Assembly: GCA_963841015.1 (NCBI GenBank)
Contig: CAWJAX010000002.1
Span: 352,001 to 416,000, forward strand
Length of the DNA stretch: 64,000 nucleotides
Reading direction: 5' to 3'
DNA from: an uncultured Methanoregulaceae archaeon
GTDB taxonomy: Archaea; Halobacteriota; Methanomicrobia; Methanomicrobiales; Methanospirillaceae
The translations under genes and the position numbers were made by a program. Under the pieces are notes generated by a model, which was given only the letters and a program-made list of their open reading frames with translations, did no database searches and was not told the DNA's origin. Numbering within the stretch: position 1 is the stretch's first letter; the number at the start of each line of letters is the position of its first letter. Of the stretch, positions 2,489-21,193 are shown in pieces.

Positions 2489-3776
2489 ATGAAAAAAGCG
2501 GTTCTGCAGGTTGCACTTGATATTCTTGAACTAAAAAGGGCGTTGCAGATCGCCCAGGAATCGCTTGACGGAGGTTCTGACTGGATTGAAATAGGGACAC
2601 CGCTGATTAAAAGTGAGGGGATGCAGGCAGTCCGATCGATGAGGGATCGTTTTCCAAATACCATACTTGTTGCAGATATGAAGATTGCCGATACAGGTAC
2701 CCTTGAGGTGGAGATGGCTGCAAAGGCAGGGGCTAATGTCGTATGCGTTCTTGCAGATGCAGACAACTCGGTGATTGAAGAGGCTGTGCGGGCTTCCCGT
2801 TTGTATGGAATACGGATAATGGCGGATCTGATCAATGTCAAAGATCCCGTATCCCGTGCACGTGAGCTTGAAGCATTGGGTATAGATATCCTTTGTGCCC
2901 ATGTTGGCATCGACCAGCAGATGATGGGTAAGAGTTCCTTTGACCTTCTTTTATCTCTGTCTGATCAGGTTCATATTCCTCTCGCAATTGCGGGAGGAAT
3001 TGACGCGGCAGGTGCCGGAGACGCGGTACAGTCGGGTGCGGATATTATTATCGTTGGAGGCTGGATTGTCCGGTCGGCAGATGTAACCGGATCTACAAAA
3101 AAGATTCGTTCATCAATGGATAATCCTTCGATCCAATCTATTGAAAAAAAATCACCTGATGAAGAAATTCGCTCCCTCCTCATGCAGGTATCTGCACCAA
3201 ATATCACTGATGCCATGCATCGGAAAGGTGCCATGTCTGGAATCGTTTCGATTTGCGGCAATGTAAAGATGGTGGGAAGGGCAGTAACCGTCCAGACATT
3301 TCCCGGGGACTGGGCAAAACCTGTAGAAGCCATTGATATTGCCAGAAAAAATGAAGTAATTGTGATCAATAACGATGGTGCGACCCATATAGCCCCCTGG
3401 GGAGAACTTGCCACACTTCAGCTGTGTGAAAAAAGGAATATCCGGTGTTGTCATTGATGGTGCAGTCCGGGATGTCGATGATATAAGAATAATGAAGTTC
3501 CCTCTGTTTGCAAAAGCTGTTGTGCCTAACGCGGGAGAGCCCAAGGGATTCGGTGAGATCAATGCGGAAATTCAGTGTGGAGGCCAGTATGTCCGTCCCG
3601 GTGACTGGATTGTAGGAGATGAAAGTGGCGTGGTTGTGATCCCCGGTGAGCGGGCGTATGAAATTGCACGAAGGGCTTTAGAGGTCAGGAAAAATGAAGA
3701 AAGGATCCGGGAAGAGATTCGCAGGGGAAGCACTCTTTCTGAAGTTGCAGAATTGATAAAATGGGAAAAGAAGTGA
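2489..3776 (+). CDS. 3-hexulose-6-phosphate synthase fused to RraA/HMG-aldolase-like domain (frameshift near 3419, probably an error)
   Basis: [15 protein letters not shown] and [10 protein letters not shown] motifs, then NITDAM, WGELAT and [10 protein letters not shown] split over ORFs 2483-3457 and 3408-3776. Confidence 0.85.
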
Positions 3777-14780: not shown

Positions 14781-14854
14781 CCTCCTGTCTGATTTGTGGT
14801 TTATCCAAAAACCAGGCCTGCTGGTGGGATTATCTATGATCTCTCTGTTTTGTG

Positions 14855-14880
14855 TATAGCAATATATGGTTTATTGCTAT
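14855..14880. promoter_or_regulatory. Palindrome ATAGCAATA-N7-TATTGCTAT upstream of the DUF5806 gene; partial copy of the repeat at 15781 and 18104
   Basis: Perfect 9-bp arms (14856-14864, 14872-14880) around TATGGTT; overlaps a TATA-like CCATATAT on the minus strand. Confidence 0.65.
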
Positions 14881-15298
14881 TAAAATTATGATAAACTCTT
14901 CTGGTTTTTTTGTCAACAATACGTCTGAAAAATACGTTTGAAAACAGATTTTTTTAAGGATAAAGGTCCACGATCGTTTTATTGTCCTGTATGACCGTTT
15001 TCATGAGATTTCAAGACATAAGATCAACCGGGCACGATTGCACCCTCCTATTTCCTGCTTTGATTGTAAAAGCAGCTGGTTAAATTTTTTCCTGGTCAAT
15101 AGCAATGCATCAGCCCTCCCAAAAAAATTGTCCGGTCCTTCCGAATTGCACGATTGCACCCATGCTATTTTTCGTTTTCTCTTATTGGCTTGCTGCCTTT
15201 TGTTCGAATGATTGTTCAAGGTGATCCGGATAAAGCACCCCGGGAAATCTTGCCCTTCAATTTTACACACTATGCAGTATATTTTTTTTGCTCTGTTT

Positions 15299-15500
15299 TG
15301 CTCTTTAGAACTCCTTTTTTTACTGTGATATGAAATTCGAGATGCTGGTACGATGAAGGAGGGGGGACCGTGCCTGTCCCCTCATACCACCCCTGCGCTG
15401 AGCGATCAGGACTTAGCACCTGTGTTCGGATTTTTTTGCAGCGGCGGGGGTGAAATCCCCCTTGAGCGTATAGCTTGTAATTGAACATCTCTACAGAGTT
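15299..15500 (-). mobile_element. MITE-like GC-rich repeat with degenerate IS5-like ends
   Basis: Ends TGCTCTTTAGAACTCC and AACATCTCTACAGAGTT resemble the IS ends GGCTTTGTAGAATTCC and AGCATTTCTACAAAGCC; body is homologous to 61808-61960. Confidence 0.6.
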
Positions 15501-15780
15501 TTTTTTAAATTTTACGGAATCTTTGCGAATTTTTTGTGTATGATTTTGTTGTGTTCTTCTTTATGCAAAGGCACGCGAATTCTCCTTCATTTGATACTGG
15601 GCAAGCCAGAATAATTCACGAATATTTCTATTCCCTATAACCTGATATTTCGGCTCTTTTTTAATGAGGTGGCTGTTGCATAATGTTCGATTAATTTTGT
15701 GATGATTGTAGTGCAGCTTTTCATGGGAAGGCCAATTTACTCGAAAAATGGTGAGAAGGGAAGAAATCCAGCAAAAAAAT

Positions 15781-15812
15781 TGCCTTTAGTATATAGCATC
15801 ATATGGTTTATA
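15781..15812 (+). repeat. Left arm of 32-bp inverted repeat flanking xerA
   Basis: TGCCTTTAGTATATAGCATCATATGGTTTATA; 30/32 identical to the reverse complement of 18104-18135. Confidence 0.9.
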
Positions 15813-16924
15813 ATAAAAAGAGGGCTAACAGAAAAAATAATCATAAAATTAAAATTTATGCATATTTTTTAAAAATAACTCTATTTGGGGGATTTATAAT
15901 TGTTATACCAAAAATTATGTACGTGTGTGCATATAATCCTTACACCAGGGTAAAGTCAGATTAAATGTGGAATTTAGAATACTATTCTTGTATTTTATGC
16001 AAAACATATCCTCCATCGGAAAACACACCCCTGAATGTCCACTAAGATTTTTATTTGTATGATTAAATTTTTTTTAAGAAGATTTTCGTGATTTATAGGA
16101 AAAACCTAGACAATTTGCTTATTACCAAAAGAATGTTCGATGTATTTCGCACGAATTACCTTAAAATGTCCTCAATTTTAGAGTTTAACGCGAAACTATT
16201 CTCTTTTGGAATTATAATTTGGAACCAATCGATCTTGTCGGAACTTTTACGGTACTCCGGGTTTACGAAAGAAACTGGTAAACGAATTTTTACCAGAGTT
16301 CGTTCTCCTTTCACAAATATTTGATAATGTCACGAAATATCCACTAACTTCAGGTTTTCTTCCAATTTTTAACAGATTCAACGCTAAATTATCTGGATTA
16401 ATCGGTTGATATATTCTGGAACATCCCTGGTTGGAGCAGGATTGACTTAAAGCACAACCGGATTCTGTTTTTCTGTCATAAAATTCCAGAAAAACCTCAT
16501 ATCTGGTGCATGAAAGATAATGAGAAGACTACTGATCAGGACAAATCCTGTGCCGTATTTTAATAAGGGGAAAATGGTGTCCTTTCATTTTCAAAGACCA
16601 TTATTACGCCGGGTACAAATCAGACTAGTGATATAACTAAATCTTGTATCTTCTGTCTGAATGAACCAGTCTTCAATTTTCCACAGACGACAGAACTCAA
16701 TAGTGGGCTTCTGGCAACGTTTCTGATATGGCTTGAATCGAATCTACCCTATCTGATGAAAAAACCCCCTTTTTTAATATCTCTTAATCGAAGTGTCAAC
16801 TTACTTTCAGATAGAGATACCAGTAAAATATGTACACAAGGGATGATGCTGCAGTTTGTATGAGTTTTGACAACATACCTTCAAATTGGCATTCCAAGCA
16901 GCATCGAGATACAGCGATTTCAGA

Positions 16925-16952
16925 CTTTCGCAGAACAGGTATTCTGCGCAAA
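16925..16952. promoter_or_regulatory. dif-like 11-6-11 palindrome immediately upstream of the xerA TATA box
   Basis: CTTTCGCAGAA-CAGGTA-TTCTGCGCAAA (inner 7 bp perfectly inverted), followed by TTTATTTA and ATG at 16986. Confidence 0.65.
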
Positions 16953-16985
16953 CCTTTATTTATTTGAGATAAGATAAATTAGACC

Positions 16986-17903
16986 ATGGAAAGCGGGTAT
17001 TTTTCGGAGTGGCTCAAAAGCTACCGCAACTACCTCCGGATGCGTAATTACTCCCCCCGCACGCTCAACAGCTATGAACAGGTCATTAAACATTTTGCTT
17101 ACTACGTTTGGCTGCGCCGTCACACGGATGTGACGAAACTTGTAATATACTGGAAAGATTTTGAAAATGCCCGGCTTGATACTGACGTAGAGGTTACTCC
17201 AGTAATTATTACGGATTTCCTCTCATTTGTATCGTCAATGCAGACATACAAACCCAAAACGTTTCACCGTATTATATCAACCCTGAGCTCATTCTACCGC
17301 TTCCTGTTTACGCAAGGAGCTGTCACATCCAACCCCCTGACCGGTATCGATCGTCCTCGGATAAAACAACAGGATGTAAAATATCTCAAGCACAACCAGG
17401 TGTTGCGACTGCTTGATTCAATAGAAGATCCTCGTGACAAACTTATTGTCAGGACCATTTATGCTACCGGTGTCCGGGTATCAGAGCTTTGTAATATGAA
17501 TATCGAAGATATCGATTTTGATGAACATACCATCAGAATCCGGGGAAAAGGTGACAAGATAAGAACAGTTTTTGTCGATGATGATACCCTTGCTGATATC
17601 TTAAAGTTCATTGGCAACAGGATTACCGGGCCCGTTTTTGTAGGTCAGCAGGGTAAAAATATCTCATCAAGAGCCATTCAGCATATCTTCAAACATTATG
17701 CACCCACGGGGATAACCCCACATAAGATTCGTCATAGTTATGCAAGTGAACTTTATAAACGATCAAAAAATCTCAGGGTTGTCCAGGAAAATCTTGGTCA
17801 TACCTCCATAAAAACAACAGAAATTTACCTCCATACCGATATTGACGAACGAAGACAGGTTTATCAACAGTTTTTCCCGCTTTCTGACAATGATGAGAAC
17901 TAA
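16986..17903 (+). CDS. xerA: XerA-type site-specific tyrosine recombinase
   Basis: SAM-like N-domain (RNYSPRTLNSYEQ); intact catalytic set YATGVRVSEL (R), GKGDK (K), TPHKIRH (HxxR), LGH and TTEIY (Y). Confidence 0.9.
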   Translation: MESGYFSEWLKSYRNYLRMRNYSPRTLNSYEQVIKHFAYYVWLRRHTDVTKLVIYWKDFENARLDTDVEVTPVIITDFLSFVSSMQTYKPKTFHRIISTLSSFYRFLFTQGAVTSNPLTGIDRPRIKQQDVKYLKHNQVLRLLDSIEDPRDKLIVRTIYATGVRVSELCNMNIEDIDFDEHTIRIRGKGDKIRTVFVDDDTLADILKFIGNRITGPVFVGQQGKNISSRAIQHIFKHYAPTGITPHKIRHSYASELYKRSKNLRVVQENLGHTSIKTTEIYLHTDIDERRQVYQQFFPLSDNDEN

Positions 17904-18103
17904 TACGGCCAGTGCTTCTTTATTTAAAAAAAATTGGTAATGCCAGTATCTTTCCAGTTTTCATAGTGATTCAATATTGGTAAAAAACTTCGAATCGCTC
18001 AATCACAAATAACAGTAATTCAGTCTTATTTTTGTGTTTAAACCACATTTCTATCGATAATCTCTCCCAAAAAAACTGTGAAAACCTCTGAATTTTTTTA
18101 AGG

Positions 18104-18135
18104 TATAAACCATATGTTGCTATATACTAACGGCA
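18104..18135 (-). repeat. Right arm of 32-bp inverted repeat flanking xerA
   Basis: TATAAACCATATGTTGCTATATACTAACGGCA. Confidence 0.9.
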
Positions 18136-18460
18136 TCATTTTCTCCCTCGATTATATGAGCTTTTAGAATTTTCTGTGCTTTCTCTGGTGCACCAGCTTC
18201 CAGAATGAAAAATCAGAAAGGATAGATACGGAAATTATCCGGGATGGTTCATATCGATGAATTCTGTTGCAGTATAGTAGAGAAAATTTTCTTCACGAGT
18301 ATCTGATGATGCATTCACCCGCAGTAATTCATGGAATTTTTGGTGTGGATCTCGCTGGTAGACTATGAATAATGAGACTTTGCCTGGGTTCCCGGCGAAG
18401 AATGCAAAGGACCCAATCGCCATTATTAATAGCAGATAAATCTCCTGACATTTGATGAGA

Positions 18461-19452
18461 AAAATCCAGATAACTCTAATTATATTCAATGTCTGGTGAA
18501 GAACCTGTGGTATCGAAATGTTTGGGATGGGGAATTTACCGATGAGGATATGAGAAAAATCCAGATAAATCCAATTATAACTAATGTCCGAAGAAGAAGG
18601 TAAAGTATCTTATCTTTCCGTTTAAGAAGCCAGCCGGTGAAAGAACCAGTAAAATCCAGATAACTCTAATTATATCCAATGTCTGGTGAAGAACCTGTGG
18701 TATCGAAATGTTTGGGGTGGGGAATTTACCGATGAGGATATGAGAAAAATCCAGATAAATCCAATTATAACTAATGTCCGAAGAAGAAGGTAAAGTATCT
18801 TATCTTTCCGTTTAAGAAGCCAGCCGGTGAAAGAACCAGTAAAATCCAGATAACTCTAATTATATCCAATGTCTGGTGAAGAACCTGTGGTATCGAAATG
18901 TTTGGGGTGGGGAATTTACCGATGAGGATATGAGAAAAATCCAGATAAATCCAATTATAACTAATGTCCGAAGAAGAAGGTAAAGTATCTTATCTTTCCG
19001 TTTAAGAAGCCAGCCGGTGAAAGAACCAGTAAAATCCAGATAACTCTAATTATATCCAATGTCTGGTGAAGAACCTGTGGTATCGAAATGTTTGGGGTGG
19101 GGAATTTACCGATGAGGATATGAGAAAAATCCAGATAAATCCAATTATAACTAATGTCCGAAGAAGAAGGTAAAGTATCTTATCTTTCCGGTTAAGAAAC
19201 CAGCCGGTGAAAGAACCAGTAAAATCCAGATAACTCTAATTATATCCAATGTCTGGTGAAGAACCTGTGGTATCGAAATGTTTGGGGTGGGGAATTTACC
19301 GATGAGGATATGAGAAAAATCCAGATAAATCCAATTATAACTAATGTCCGAAGAAGAAGGTAAAGTATCTTATCTTTCCGGTTAAGAAGCCAGCCGGTGA
19401 AAGAACCAGTAAAATCCAGAAAACTCTAATTATATTCGATGTCTGGTGAAGA
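18461..19452. repeat. Non-coding tandem array: 5 x 190-bp units plus a partial unit, containing 11 dif-like cores at 95-bp spacing
   Basis: Type A cores AATCCAGATAA-CTCTAA-TTATATCCAAT start at 18463, 18653, 18843, 19033, 19223, 19413 (first and last slightly diverged). Type B cores AATCCAGATAA-ATCCAA-TTATAACTAAT start at 18558, 18748, 18938, 19128, 19318. Confidence 0.97.
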
Positions 19453-19595
19453 GCTCCGGAGAAGCAACTTGTGTAATCTGATTCATTGAGTAGCCTACGA
19501 AATCAGGGTATATTTTTGTATTTACCTATCAGGTTACATAATTGTATAACCACAATTCTTTATTTCATATTTGCTGACATAATGTGGGAACAGAT

Positions 19596-20051
19596 ATGCC
19601 AAAAGTCCAGAAACGGAAATACGAAAAAATCGATGATCTGGAAATTGACCTGGTTATCCAATGTAATGACAGTCACGAATTCTATGAACGATACCGACAG
19701 GTTTTCCCTAATAAAAAGAAAGGAATTGACAGCATCAGTAAAATCTGGAAACGACGCAGCGAATTTATTAAAAAACAACATGGTGATTTGCAACCTGCCG
19801 AATCTCATTCAGGATCCTCACGTGAACTCGAGATCCTTATCACTGATCAGAACAAAATTCTGGCTGAATTATCCGGTGTTATGAAAGAACACCTCAGGGT
19901 AAGTAAGGAAATCCTGGCGCGTTTCCCAAAACAGATACAGAAATCCGATGAGCCCGTTCAGAAAACTGCAGAAGTCAAAATCCCTGATCACAAAGAACCT
20001 GAAAAGAAAATCAGTGGGGAAAGACGTAAGGATATTATGATAGGGTCCTGA
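19596..20051 (+). CDS. Hypothetical protein: basic helical N-domain (possible HTH) plus coiled coil
   Basis: HEFYERYRQVFPNKKKGIDSISKIWKRR, then heptad-like LEILITDQNKILAELSGVMKEHLRVSKEIL. Confidence 0.7.
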   Translation: MPKVQKRKYEKIDDLEIDLVIQCNDSHEFYERYRQVFPNKKKGIDSISKIWKRRSEFIKKQHGDLQPAESHSGSSRELEILITDQNKILAELSGVMKEHLRVSKEILARFPKQIQKSDEPVQKTAEVKIPDHKEPEKKISGERRKDIMIGS

Positions 20052-20259
20052 ACCCTGAATATATAAATCAAAAAGTAAAAAACCAATTCAATGAACTCTG
20101 ATGATGAATGTAATATTATGATTCGGCATTCGTTACCTTCCTATGAGGGAAAATATTTTTTTTTGACAAAGGTATCCTTATAGTCCTAAAATGCAAATAT
20201 GCCTAAGCATCTTTCTGAATAAAAGGAAGGTAGCCGAATTCGCAATCGTTTAATTAAAT

Positions 20260-20332
20260 ACCCCCGTAGTGTAGCGGTCAATCATGCAGGACTTTGGATC
20301 CGGCGACACCAGTTCGAATCTGGTCGGGGGTA
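20260..20332 (+). tRNA. tRNA-Gln (anticodon UUG)
   Basis: Acceptor ACCCCCG/CGGGGGT with archaeal A1-U72 pair; D arm GTGTAGCGGTCAATCATG; anticodon loop CT-TTG-GA; T arm ACCAG-TTCGAAT-CTGGT. One mismatch in the anticodon stem. Confidence 0.93.
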
Positions 20333-20656
20333 TTGAAAAGCAGGCACTGGTATTGTCACTCTTTTTGGACAAATTGATCAACAAAATGACTTATTGTTGT
20401 TTAAAAAAATCTTTTTTCGCGTTAAAATAAATGGTTGCCCGGACAGGGACACCTATGACACCAGTCAGGAACTCTCCTGGATTGGGACAGAATCATTATC
20501 CGGCAATCCCTTTTTTTAAATTTTGACCGACCACGAATGCCCACGCGACAGGCCCCTAATGCATCCCCATCTCCAGCGCACCCTCTTCTCTGTGCAAGTG
20601 TATATATACGGAATCATTCCCACATTATCAGAACATATTACCAGGAGCTTTTGATA

Positions 20657-21193
20657 GTGAAGTGGCTGTCTACTCTTGTGATAATGATCATCGTGACAGC
20701 TGTTATTGCAGCAGGTTGCGCTGACGAAGAAGATTCCGGCCCTGTGATGCCTGCAGCTGATGCTGCTCTACCGGGCCAGGTACTGATAGATATCGGTAAT
20801 GTGACCGGGAATGGTATACCCCGGGGTACGATCGATACCATCACCTTCACTCTCGGTCTTGTTCCTGGAGAGAAATCCGTTAATGTGGAGAATATCTCAA
20901 TTGTCTATGCTGATGCAATCCGGACCGAGAGCCTGGTTCCTGTCGAAGGTTTTTATGGTGATCCTCCGCCGGGCTCCTGGGGAATTCTGGAAGTTCAGAA
21001 CCAGGTGGGCACCCCAAACAACCGGCTCGAATTTGAGGAGCGGTTAGTCATCCGGATCAATCCCAAAGCACCGCTCGTTCCCCTGCAGTTTGTAACGATC
21101 ATCGTAAAACCCCCTTCAGGTACATCTCTGACTATCCGCAGGGTCTCTCCCCCAACCATAATCAAAGAGAATAATCTCCTTACCCCTGTCTAA
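20657..21193 (+). CDS. Lipoprotein with archaellin-like globular domain
   Basis: Hydrophobic N-terminus ending IAAGC; C-terminal NNRLEFEERLVIRI and IVKPPSGTSLTIRRVSP resemble the archaellin beta-domain. Confidence 0.6.
   Translation: MKWLSTLVIMIIVTAVIAAGCADEEDSGPVMPAADAALPGQVLIDIGNVTGNGIPRGTIDTITFTLGLVPGEKSVNVENISIVYADAIRTESLVPVEGFYGDPPPGSWGILEVQNQVGTPNNRLEFEERLVIRINPKAPLVPLQFVTIIVKPPSGTSLTIRRVSPPTIIKENNLLTPV

Follow-up and report, generated by a model that had tools for sequence, protein, structure and literature searches.

The stretch of DNA analysed here (the window, 64,000 nucleotides from an uncultured Methanoregulaceae archaeon) carries, between the gene for the archaeal tyrosine recombinase XerA and a gene for a small protein of 151 residues (orf151), a tandem array of eleven 95-bp units. 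Our preferred reading, to which we give a probability of roughly 0.45, is that this array is a non-recombining, helically phased, multivalent platform for protein binding. The selected part would be a 30-bp core with three ATCCA boxes on the same strand, one helical turn (10 bp) apart; the cores would be presented every 94-96 bp, or about nine turns, with a fourth box some 48 bp further on. A sequence-specific protein could then load onto the array and build a nucleoprotein or architectural element of about 1 kb within the AT-rich spacer between xerA and orf151, with the copy number drifting by 190 bp at a time as near-identical dimers exchange unequally. Both the binding and the identity of the ligand are matters that we infer from the DNA. 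The candidates are XerA, which might recognize the half-site-like right arm of the core, and the product of orf151; neither is probable, but each is plausible enough to be named.

Tandem Repeats Finder describes the array (18461..19452, plus strand) as 5.2 copies of a 190-bp period with 99% matches (score 1928) and a 95-bp sub-period with 67% matches, that is, 5.2 dimers of two unit types, A and B. The core pattern ATCCAGATAA-N6-TTATA occurs eleven times at 18464+95n, ten times exactly and the last time with one mismatch, and the 28-bp cores themselves begin at 18463+95n. Their order is ABABABABABA; 5 of the 28 positions distinguish the two types, and two linkers recur alternately. The eleven cores, their exact 95-bp spacing and the alternating order had been proposed in the original prediction, and all are confirmed by the repeat finder and the pattern scans; the unit listing likewise agrees with its statement that the terminal cores (first, TTATATTCAAT; last, GAAAA...TTATATTCGAT) are the most diverged. 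An inner ATAA-N6-TTAT, attributed there to every core, is present in ten of the eleven and is replaced by AAAA in its first half in the last. The first core, at 18463..18492 on the plus strand as delimited by the sequence and by a profile built across species from 16 arrays (92 distinct units), illustrates how the 30 bp divide into 10-bp boxes, all three on one strand: the first is AAATCCAGAT, the second AAATCCAATT or AACTCTAATT, the third ATATCCAATG or ATAACTAATG. At three mismatches or fewer the core pattern has 16 matches in the window against 2.18 expected from shuffled sequences (0 of 100 shuffles reach 16), and at one mismatch or fewer the whole 2.28-Mb, five-contig assembly has these eleven alone.

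The array begins 558 bp past the xerA stop (17903), in a region where the GC content is 0.37-0.38 from 18 to 20 kb. Its linkers are 65 bp long and hold neither ORFs nor gene cargo, and all of the cores lie on one strand. As had been predicted, it fully contains no ORF of at least 50 aa that has a start codon; the sole ORF of that size to touch it (18235..18489, minus strand, 84 aa) overlaps only the first 29 bases, and stop-to-stop frames within the array reach at most 72 codons. The plus strand of the array has 17 A4 runs and no T4 runs. The power of AA and A-tract signals at 9.5 and 10.56 bp only echoes the 95-bp period, and we therefore make no claim of curvature.

The recombinase gene (xerA, 16986..17903, plus strand) encodes a 305-aa protein that matches Pfam PF00589 (1.3e-35) and NCBIfam recomb_XerA_Arch, scoring 283 bits against NF040815, well above the cut-off of 220; its original identification as xerA is thus borne out. 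The residues R, K, H-x-x-R, H and Y, which are candidates for the catalytic roles, are invariant in an alignment of 19 orthologues. It is the single such match in the source genome, which also encodes SMC and ScpA, and each of the 29 high-quality genomes sampled from the order has a tyrosine-recombinase match (E<=0.001), in some only to a distant recombinase. The gene order of the locus runs DUF5806 (minus strand), a gap of about 2 kb, xerA (plus strand), 1.1-2.1 kb of non-coding DNA, orf151 and tRNA-Gln. In the window the non-coding, low-GC spacer that precedes the array occupies 17904..18460, orf151 (19596..20051, plus strand) follows directly downstream of the array, and the conserved right neighbour of the module, tRNA-Gln(TTG), lies at 20259..20333 (plus strand). 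Among the 26 fetched loci that hold orf151, 21 have xerA upstream of it; in four of the remaining five the contig stops just before orf151, and in the fifth (L113) there is no xerA in the 5 kb upstream.

Arrays with a 94-96-bp period are present in 11 of 108 species-representative Methanoregula genomes, in the same place and the same orientation within the xerA-orf151 interval, these related genomes being non-independent samples. In the window, as in 10 of the 26 fetched loci, they stand directly upstream of orf151 and on its strand. Array sizes range from 2 to about 15 units, several being interrupted by contig ends or N gaps, and one metagenome scan added eight contigs whose 95/96-bp arrays have 3.5-12.6 copies; on seven of these contigs xerA and/or orf151 is present and arranged as expected. 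The unit length is not strictly fixed, given a spacing of 85-112 bp in two arrays. The A/B dimer is common to the window and the two nearest species, 381-bp higher-order periods are seen elsewhere, and close relatives differ in copy number by dimer steps (5.2 versus 3.7). In the array loci that have xerA (7 of 10), XerA is at least 93.75% identical to that of the window, whereas in the array-less loci it is at most 91.1% identical, a split compatible with a single origin of the arrays. In most Methanoregula xerA and orf151 occur with no array, which must therefore be dispensable. There were no matches to the core among viral contigs, and the box is not enriched beside xerA in the other families of the order.

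That some part of the array is selected is indicated by the comparison of the core with its surroundings. In a profile of the 92 distinct units, with the 16 arrays weighted equally, the mean agreement of columns 1-30 (the core) is 0.84-0.95 against 0.57-0.78 for the linker columns; nine of the 30 core columns are fixed by the anchor used to pick the units, and the free core columns, three excepted, lie at 0.85-1.00. The cross-species consensus of the core reads AAAATCCAGA TAAATCCAAT TATTTCCAAT, and after it come a purine-rich stretch, the fourth box (some 48 bp away from the first, TATCCAATC), a run of T and a block resembling GATGA. For the 557-bp spacer in front of the array, end-to-end alignment is possible with only the three nearest relatives, at 73-89%; in the more distant array-bearing genomes just 70-85 bp or so of it can be aligned, yet the cores still align. 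Units are 99% identical within the array and, for the same unit type, 81-88% identical in the two nearest species, where the flanking spacer is 87-89% identical. This difference between 99% within and 81-88% between arrays, together with a core that is kept while its linkers drift, argues for concerted evolution accompanied by purifying selection mainly on the core. We take the array to be a tandem repeat specific to this lineage and subject to concerted evolution; the arrays show nested periods of about 10, 47, 95, 190 and 381 bp.

Are the cores dif sites? Their resemblance to the archaeal Xer/dif system of Pyrococcus abyssi is considerable: a 28-bp site of 11-6-11 layout with an inner TAA-N6-TTA (in ten of the eleven window cores), one arm identical at 11 of 11 positions, and a position close to xerA within a large intergenic region rich in AT. 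The P. abyssi dif oligonucleotide, as given in an excerpt of PMC2958812, reads ATTGGATATAA-TCGGCC-TTATATCTAAA, and the type-A right arm is the exact reverse complement of the arm ATTGGATATAA; the Thermococcales dif arm cited in the original prediction was thus correct. The type-A cores are also the genome's best P. abyssi-like palindrome match among 482 TAA-N6-TTA sites. Their short distance from xerA recalls haloarchaea and Sulfolobus, for which excerpts of PMC11840125 and PMC2958812 place dif close to xerA, and dimer-step copy differences such as 5.2 versus 3.7 are what one might see if the cores recombined A with A and B with B, expanding and contracting the array by 190 bp. We nevertheless consider an actively recombining array of this kind quite unlikely. 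The left arm is direct instead of inverted, its outer ATCCA being a direct copy of that of the right arm, and the resulting palindromy (7 of 11 arm positions in type A, 6 of 11 in type B) is unremarkable, as 176 of the 1235 genomic TAA-N6-8-TTA sites are at least as palindromic as type A. Even the matching right-arm 11-mer is expected by chance about 1.35 times per genome, and has one occurrence outside the array. Between species the agreement of the central hexamer ATCCAA is 0.90-1.00, as high as in the arms, which one would not expect of a crossover region. Moreover, TAA-N6-TTA is present in most units of only 9 of 19 arrays and gone from the majority in the other 10, the anchors being noisy.

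Copy number and distribution also speak against an active dif array. In an excerpt of PMC8371274 dif is described as single-copy, whereas here there are eleven direct copies of the core within 1 kb, and eleven direct repeats of an efficient site should, we would expect, collapse. A dif site should also be conserved among species that share the recombinase, and the original prediction had itself looked to conservation of the core near xerA in relatives. Instead, at three mismatches or fewer the core was detected in 3 of 24 congeners and not found in the other 21, even though XerA is 82-95% identical in the sampled congeners with a full-length copy, and arrays are confined to the 11 of 108 genomes. 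In nine array-less Methanoregula loci (XerA 86-91% identical) there is no TAA-N6-TTA site between xerA and orf151, and the spacers of such loci share no conserved dif-like site. Multiple copies, a direct second arm, a conserved hexamer and congeners that mostly lack the core thus separate the array from the archaeal Xer/dif pattern, and the view of it as a XerA-expanded series of dif sites is not supported. The type-A right arm may well be a XerA-type half-site; the cores are unlikely to be the dif of the genus, and efficient recombination at them is unlikely. As for the 190-bp steps, ascribed originally to A x A and B x B recombination, the dimer steps are there, but unequal homologous exchange fits them equally well. 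We also looked for dif elsewhere: a P. abyssi-like palindrome that recurs in relatives falls inside a 585-aa ORF and was not found in the source genome, and ranking the TAA-N6-8-TTA sites of the source genome by palindromy proved uninformative as a dif search.

Systems in which several Xer-like sites, or accessory DNA, lie near a recombinase-related site offer a partial likeness, as in pdif modules, integrons and cer/psi. In pdif modules the sites alternate in orientation, and integron cassettes carry attC hairpins; here the cores have one orientation, the 65-bp linkers are without genes and no attC-like hairpin is predicted. XerA itself scores 97.6 bits against the integron-integrase profile, for which the cut-off is 265. 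An empty cassette platform, the second option of the original prediction, is likewise not supported, given the single core orientation and the lack of cargo, and a phased protein-loading array is the sole one of its three options to survive. The repeat layout (two repeat types and only two, alternating "spacers") is not that of a CRISPR array. On the features tested, then, the array would be placed outside the dif, pdif, integron and CRISPR classes. A full-text literature search returned no account of a comparable array beside xerA in an archaeon; the supplementary dif listings of PMC2958812 and PMC11840125 were outside the scope of that search and may bear on the dif comparison.

The orf151 product has no Pfam, NCBIfam or PHROG family. 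In alignments its N-terminal 60 or so residues are invariant and are followed by a long central helix and an invariant C-terminal DIMIGS. In the AF2 model (mean pLDDT 74) a helix of 38 residues is accompanied by four short ones and by a tail that is disordered. Foldseek searches of PDB and BFVD returned nothing at E<0.7, with no recognisable DNA-binding fold; an HMM search of PDB gave designed helical proteins only, and one of the Atlas its own cluster only. About 40-50 bp upstream of the orf151 start, the motif ATAACCACAATTCTTT (19546..19561, plus strand) is kept upstream of orf151 homologues in all contexts and is thus likely to be an orf151 promoter or operator. Of more direct concern for the array, 12 of the 16 Methanoregula loci without an array have an ATCCAAT/AATCCAA box in the 100 nt that precede orf151, against a background of 0.051 per 100 nt. 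These boxes take at least three configurations (forward at -15/-17, reverse at -56 to -62 or at -70/-71, forward at -74 or at -92/-93), and one locus, L108, has both forward and reverse boxes; the 12 loci are related and so do not represent 12 independent events. Among distant orf151 homologues away from xerA (41-55% identity), none of 16 has the box upstream, and every one of them retains another motif, ACCACAATTCTTTT, around -45 to -50. The absence of the box from these homologues counts against a simple model in which the orf151 protein binds its own box.

Plasmid centromeres such as parC/ParR and sopC/SopB combine phased direct repeats with a small adaptor gene downstream. The array has something of this arrangement, its repeats lying directly upstream of a gene for a small protein, helical and coiled-coil, whose terminal peptide is conserved. 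Its setting is chromosomal, unlike that of the plasmid systems, and there is no partition NTPase gene among the neighbouring genes scanned.

A second element of the locus is distributed far more widely than the array. It is a sharply bounded, imperfect palindrome of 21 bp, ATAAACCATATGATGCTATAT, with only three copies in the genome, all around xerA: one at 14855..14874 (minus strand), 75 bp upstream of the start of the DUF5806 gene; one at 15792..15811 (minus strand), 1.17 kb upstream of xerA; and one, ATAAACCATATGTTGCTATAT, at 18105..18125 (plus strand, opposite to the second), 200 bp past the stop codon of xerA and preceding the array by 336 bp. With two mismatches or fewer it is found in 28 of 29 xerA loci from six families of Methanomicrobiales, and every locus with downstream sequence has a copy about 20-600 bp past the xerA stop. 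In the loci inspected by hand (not tabulated) we read its orientation relative to xerA as constant. In eight loci another copy is found 67-87 bp ahead of the start of DUF5806. The flanks of the element are unconserved. In one family xerA is inverted relative to DUF5806. The palindrome does not follow the TAA-N6-8-TTA rule stated for archaeal dif in an excerpt of PMC11840125. Judged by these comparisons, it is a better-conserved putative xerA-linked cis element than the array; a full-text literature search did not find its sequence.

Turning to explanations other than recombination, the one that we take most seriously, while thinking it improbable, is that the array has no function and is a minisatellite that arose in a rapidly evolving, AT-rich spacer and persists only through slippage or unequal crossing-over. 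Much of what we observe is characteristic of satellites: the hierarchical periods from about 10 to 381 bp, the 99% homogeneity inside the array with divergence between species, the decayed edges, the turnover of copies between 2 and about 15, and the restriction to one subclade, in a genus whose array-less spacers are themselves long, AT-rich and unconserved. A satellite would not, in contrast, be expected to keep a 30-bp core near-invariant between species while the linkers drift, to have that core outlive the surrounding non-coding DNA, to occupy a fixed place beside xerA and orf151, or to find its box repeated upstream of orf151 in species that have no array. It is extremely unlikely that the array is an artefact in which one unit was expanded during assembly. 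The read-level evidence consists of Logan contigs that leave parts of the array without cover; those from two DNA runs break within the array and fail to bridge it, so that 5.2 copies is the number as assembled, and a close relative has an N gap inside its own array. Their summed depth climbs at the array edges, a rise that speaks against an artefact but that according to the tool's own warning is not a copy number. Arrays of several to about 15 units, with differences from unit to unit, recur in many independent assemblies and in metagenome contigs.

Transcription of the array, as a non-coding RNA or as a long orf151 leader starting from the 21-bp element 336 bp upstream, strikes us as very doubtful. 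One 173-nt metatranscriptome contig lies on 19145-19311 with nine differences, and the position of the 21-bp element 67-87 bp upstream of DUF5806 in eight loci is compatible with a promoter or operator. The library may contain DNA, however, and its contigs give neither strand nor ends; it also has contigs on orf151, which is not proof of transcription, and a 21-bp element directed towards the array would be putative. RNA structure is not predicted (z = +0.31 and +2.18), and the Rfam search gave nothing at gathering score. A C/D-box sRNA was considered and dismissed: the SNORD65 match is weak only (E=1.1, 19.7 bits against 41) and the C/D-like words of one relative are not kept in other arrays. 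Still less likely is a replication origin or iteron cluster, which an AT-rich non-coding region with phased direct repeats and inverted copies of a conserved element might suggest. The nearest Orc1/Cdc6 gene is 43 kb off (C2:327435, against C2:370461 for the array), the other match in the genome being at C5:276217; the GC skew is flat at the locus, without an extremum, no Rep-like gene is present, and most congeners do without the array.

The protein-binding platform is favoured over these alternatives by the fixed location, the greater conservation of core than linker, a core that outlasts its spacer and the recurrence of the box upstream of orf151, and also by concerted evolution with diverged edges and by the lack of an RNA-structure signal and of any ORF. 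It is weakened in that orf151 has no recognisable DNA-binding fold and none of the 16 distant homologues has the box, that the array is dispensable and its unit length variable (85-112 bp in two arrays), and that a 190/381-bp higher-order structure and edge decay would also be expected of a neutral satellite. Such a platform would find its nearest described analogues in the XDS sites bound by XerD and in an SMC boundary known from Thermococcus kodakarensis. According to excerpts of PMC11840125, XDS sites are dif-like and non-recombining and an artificial XDS array makes a boundary, while the AT- and A-tract-rich boundary that surrounds dif in T. kodakarensis needs neither XerA nor dif. The likeness lies in dif-like sites beside some 1-2 kb of AT-rich spacer that belongs with a Xer system; it is drawn here from sequence, and XerA binding and any effect on conformation are putative. 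Going one step further, the array of XerA half-site-like boxes, the 21-bp palindromes and the AT-rich 1-2-kb spacers could together form a dif-associated domain boundary of Methanoregula, or a cer/psi-like accessory scaffold that gives an archaeon without FtsK directionality in dimer resolution, in either case loading XerA or the orf151 protein without recombining. This is a speculation that we think unlikely to hold as it stands.

The locus would bear on how archaea, which lack FtsK, control the site and the direction of XerA action, and on the question, raised by PMC11840125, why dif regions coincide with SMC domain boundaries. Amplified and phased boxes resembling half of a dif site, placed beside xerA, would be a ready substrate for tests of binding and of chromosome architecture, and the 21-bp palindromes that bracket xerA in every Methanomicrobiales family examined would be a likewise testable one. 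Should the array prove to be only a satellite, it would still be a clean case, on an archaeal chromosome, of concerted evolution with a conserved core.

The 2.2-kb gap that separates xerA, the tyrosine recombinase gene (16986-17903, + strand), from its upstream neighbour, the minus-strand DUF5806 gene, occupies window positions 14781-16985; it is low in GC (0.36-0.38) and contains no convincing ORF. Conservation of this stretch in relatives is limited to the xerA promoter region and an imperfect palindrome of 21 bp, ATAAACCATATGATGCTATAT. In two loci of family f4 (L025 and L026), xerA is flipped relative to the DUF5806 gene, unlike the arrangement seen in Methanoregula and in two further families, and the segment that differs in orientation from the window is the one lying between opposed copies of the 21-bp element. 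The xerA sequences of some long-read MAGs (L095 from genome G017, L094 and L109) are split into two or three frames or carry a stop; these broken frames may reflect assembly error rather than gene decay.

Directly downstream of the 95-bp repeat array lies orf151 (19596-20051, + strand), whose 151-aa product has no match among known families. In this protein the first 60 residues and the C-terminal DIMIGS are invariant, and the gene was found in 78 of the 108 Methanoregula genomes; some of these also have, elsewhere in the genome, a second copy that is more distant in sequence. All of the orf151 homologues examined are preceded, some 45-50 bp upstream, by the motif ACCACAATTCTTT(T), located at 19546-19561 in the window and also present in loci L170-L185. 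The motif is retained even by the distant copies situated away from xerA (16/16). Further downstream, an ORF at 20537-21193 has a hydrophobic N-terminal segment and a borderline match to PF01917, the archaellin family, scoring 29.7 bits where the cut-off is 29.5.

Locus L026, from another family, carries about 700 bp upstream of xerA a 235-bp tandem repeat (3106-3745; 2.7 copies, 80% matches) unrelated to the window array. In L017 (genome G014), eight boxes of the ATCCAAT type lie on one strand within ~600 bp, at 890-1470 downstream of xerA. TRF detected no array in this stretch, and the cluster may be a decayed or a nascent array.

The 21-bp palindrome is present in just three copies in the genome, each of them near xerA: 14855-14874 (-), 15792-15811 (-) and 18105-18125 (+). 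It also occurs among loci L012-L040 and L093-L118, and is conserved at 28 of 29 xerA loci from six Methanomicrobiales families, usually with one copy soon past the xerA stop and another ~75 bp upstream of DUF5806. The element might act as an operator or promoter, or serve a recombinase as an unconventional site.
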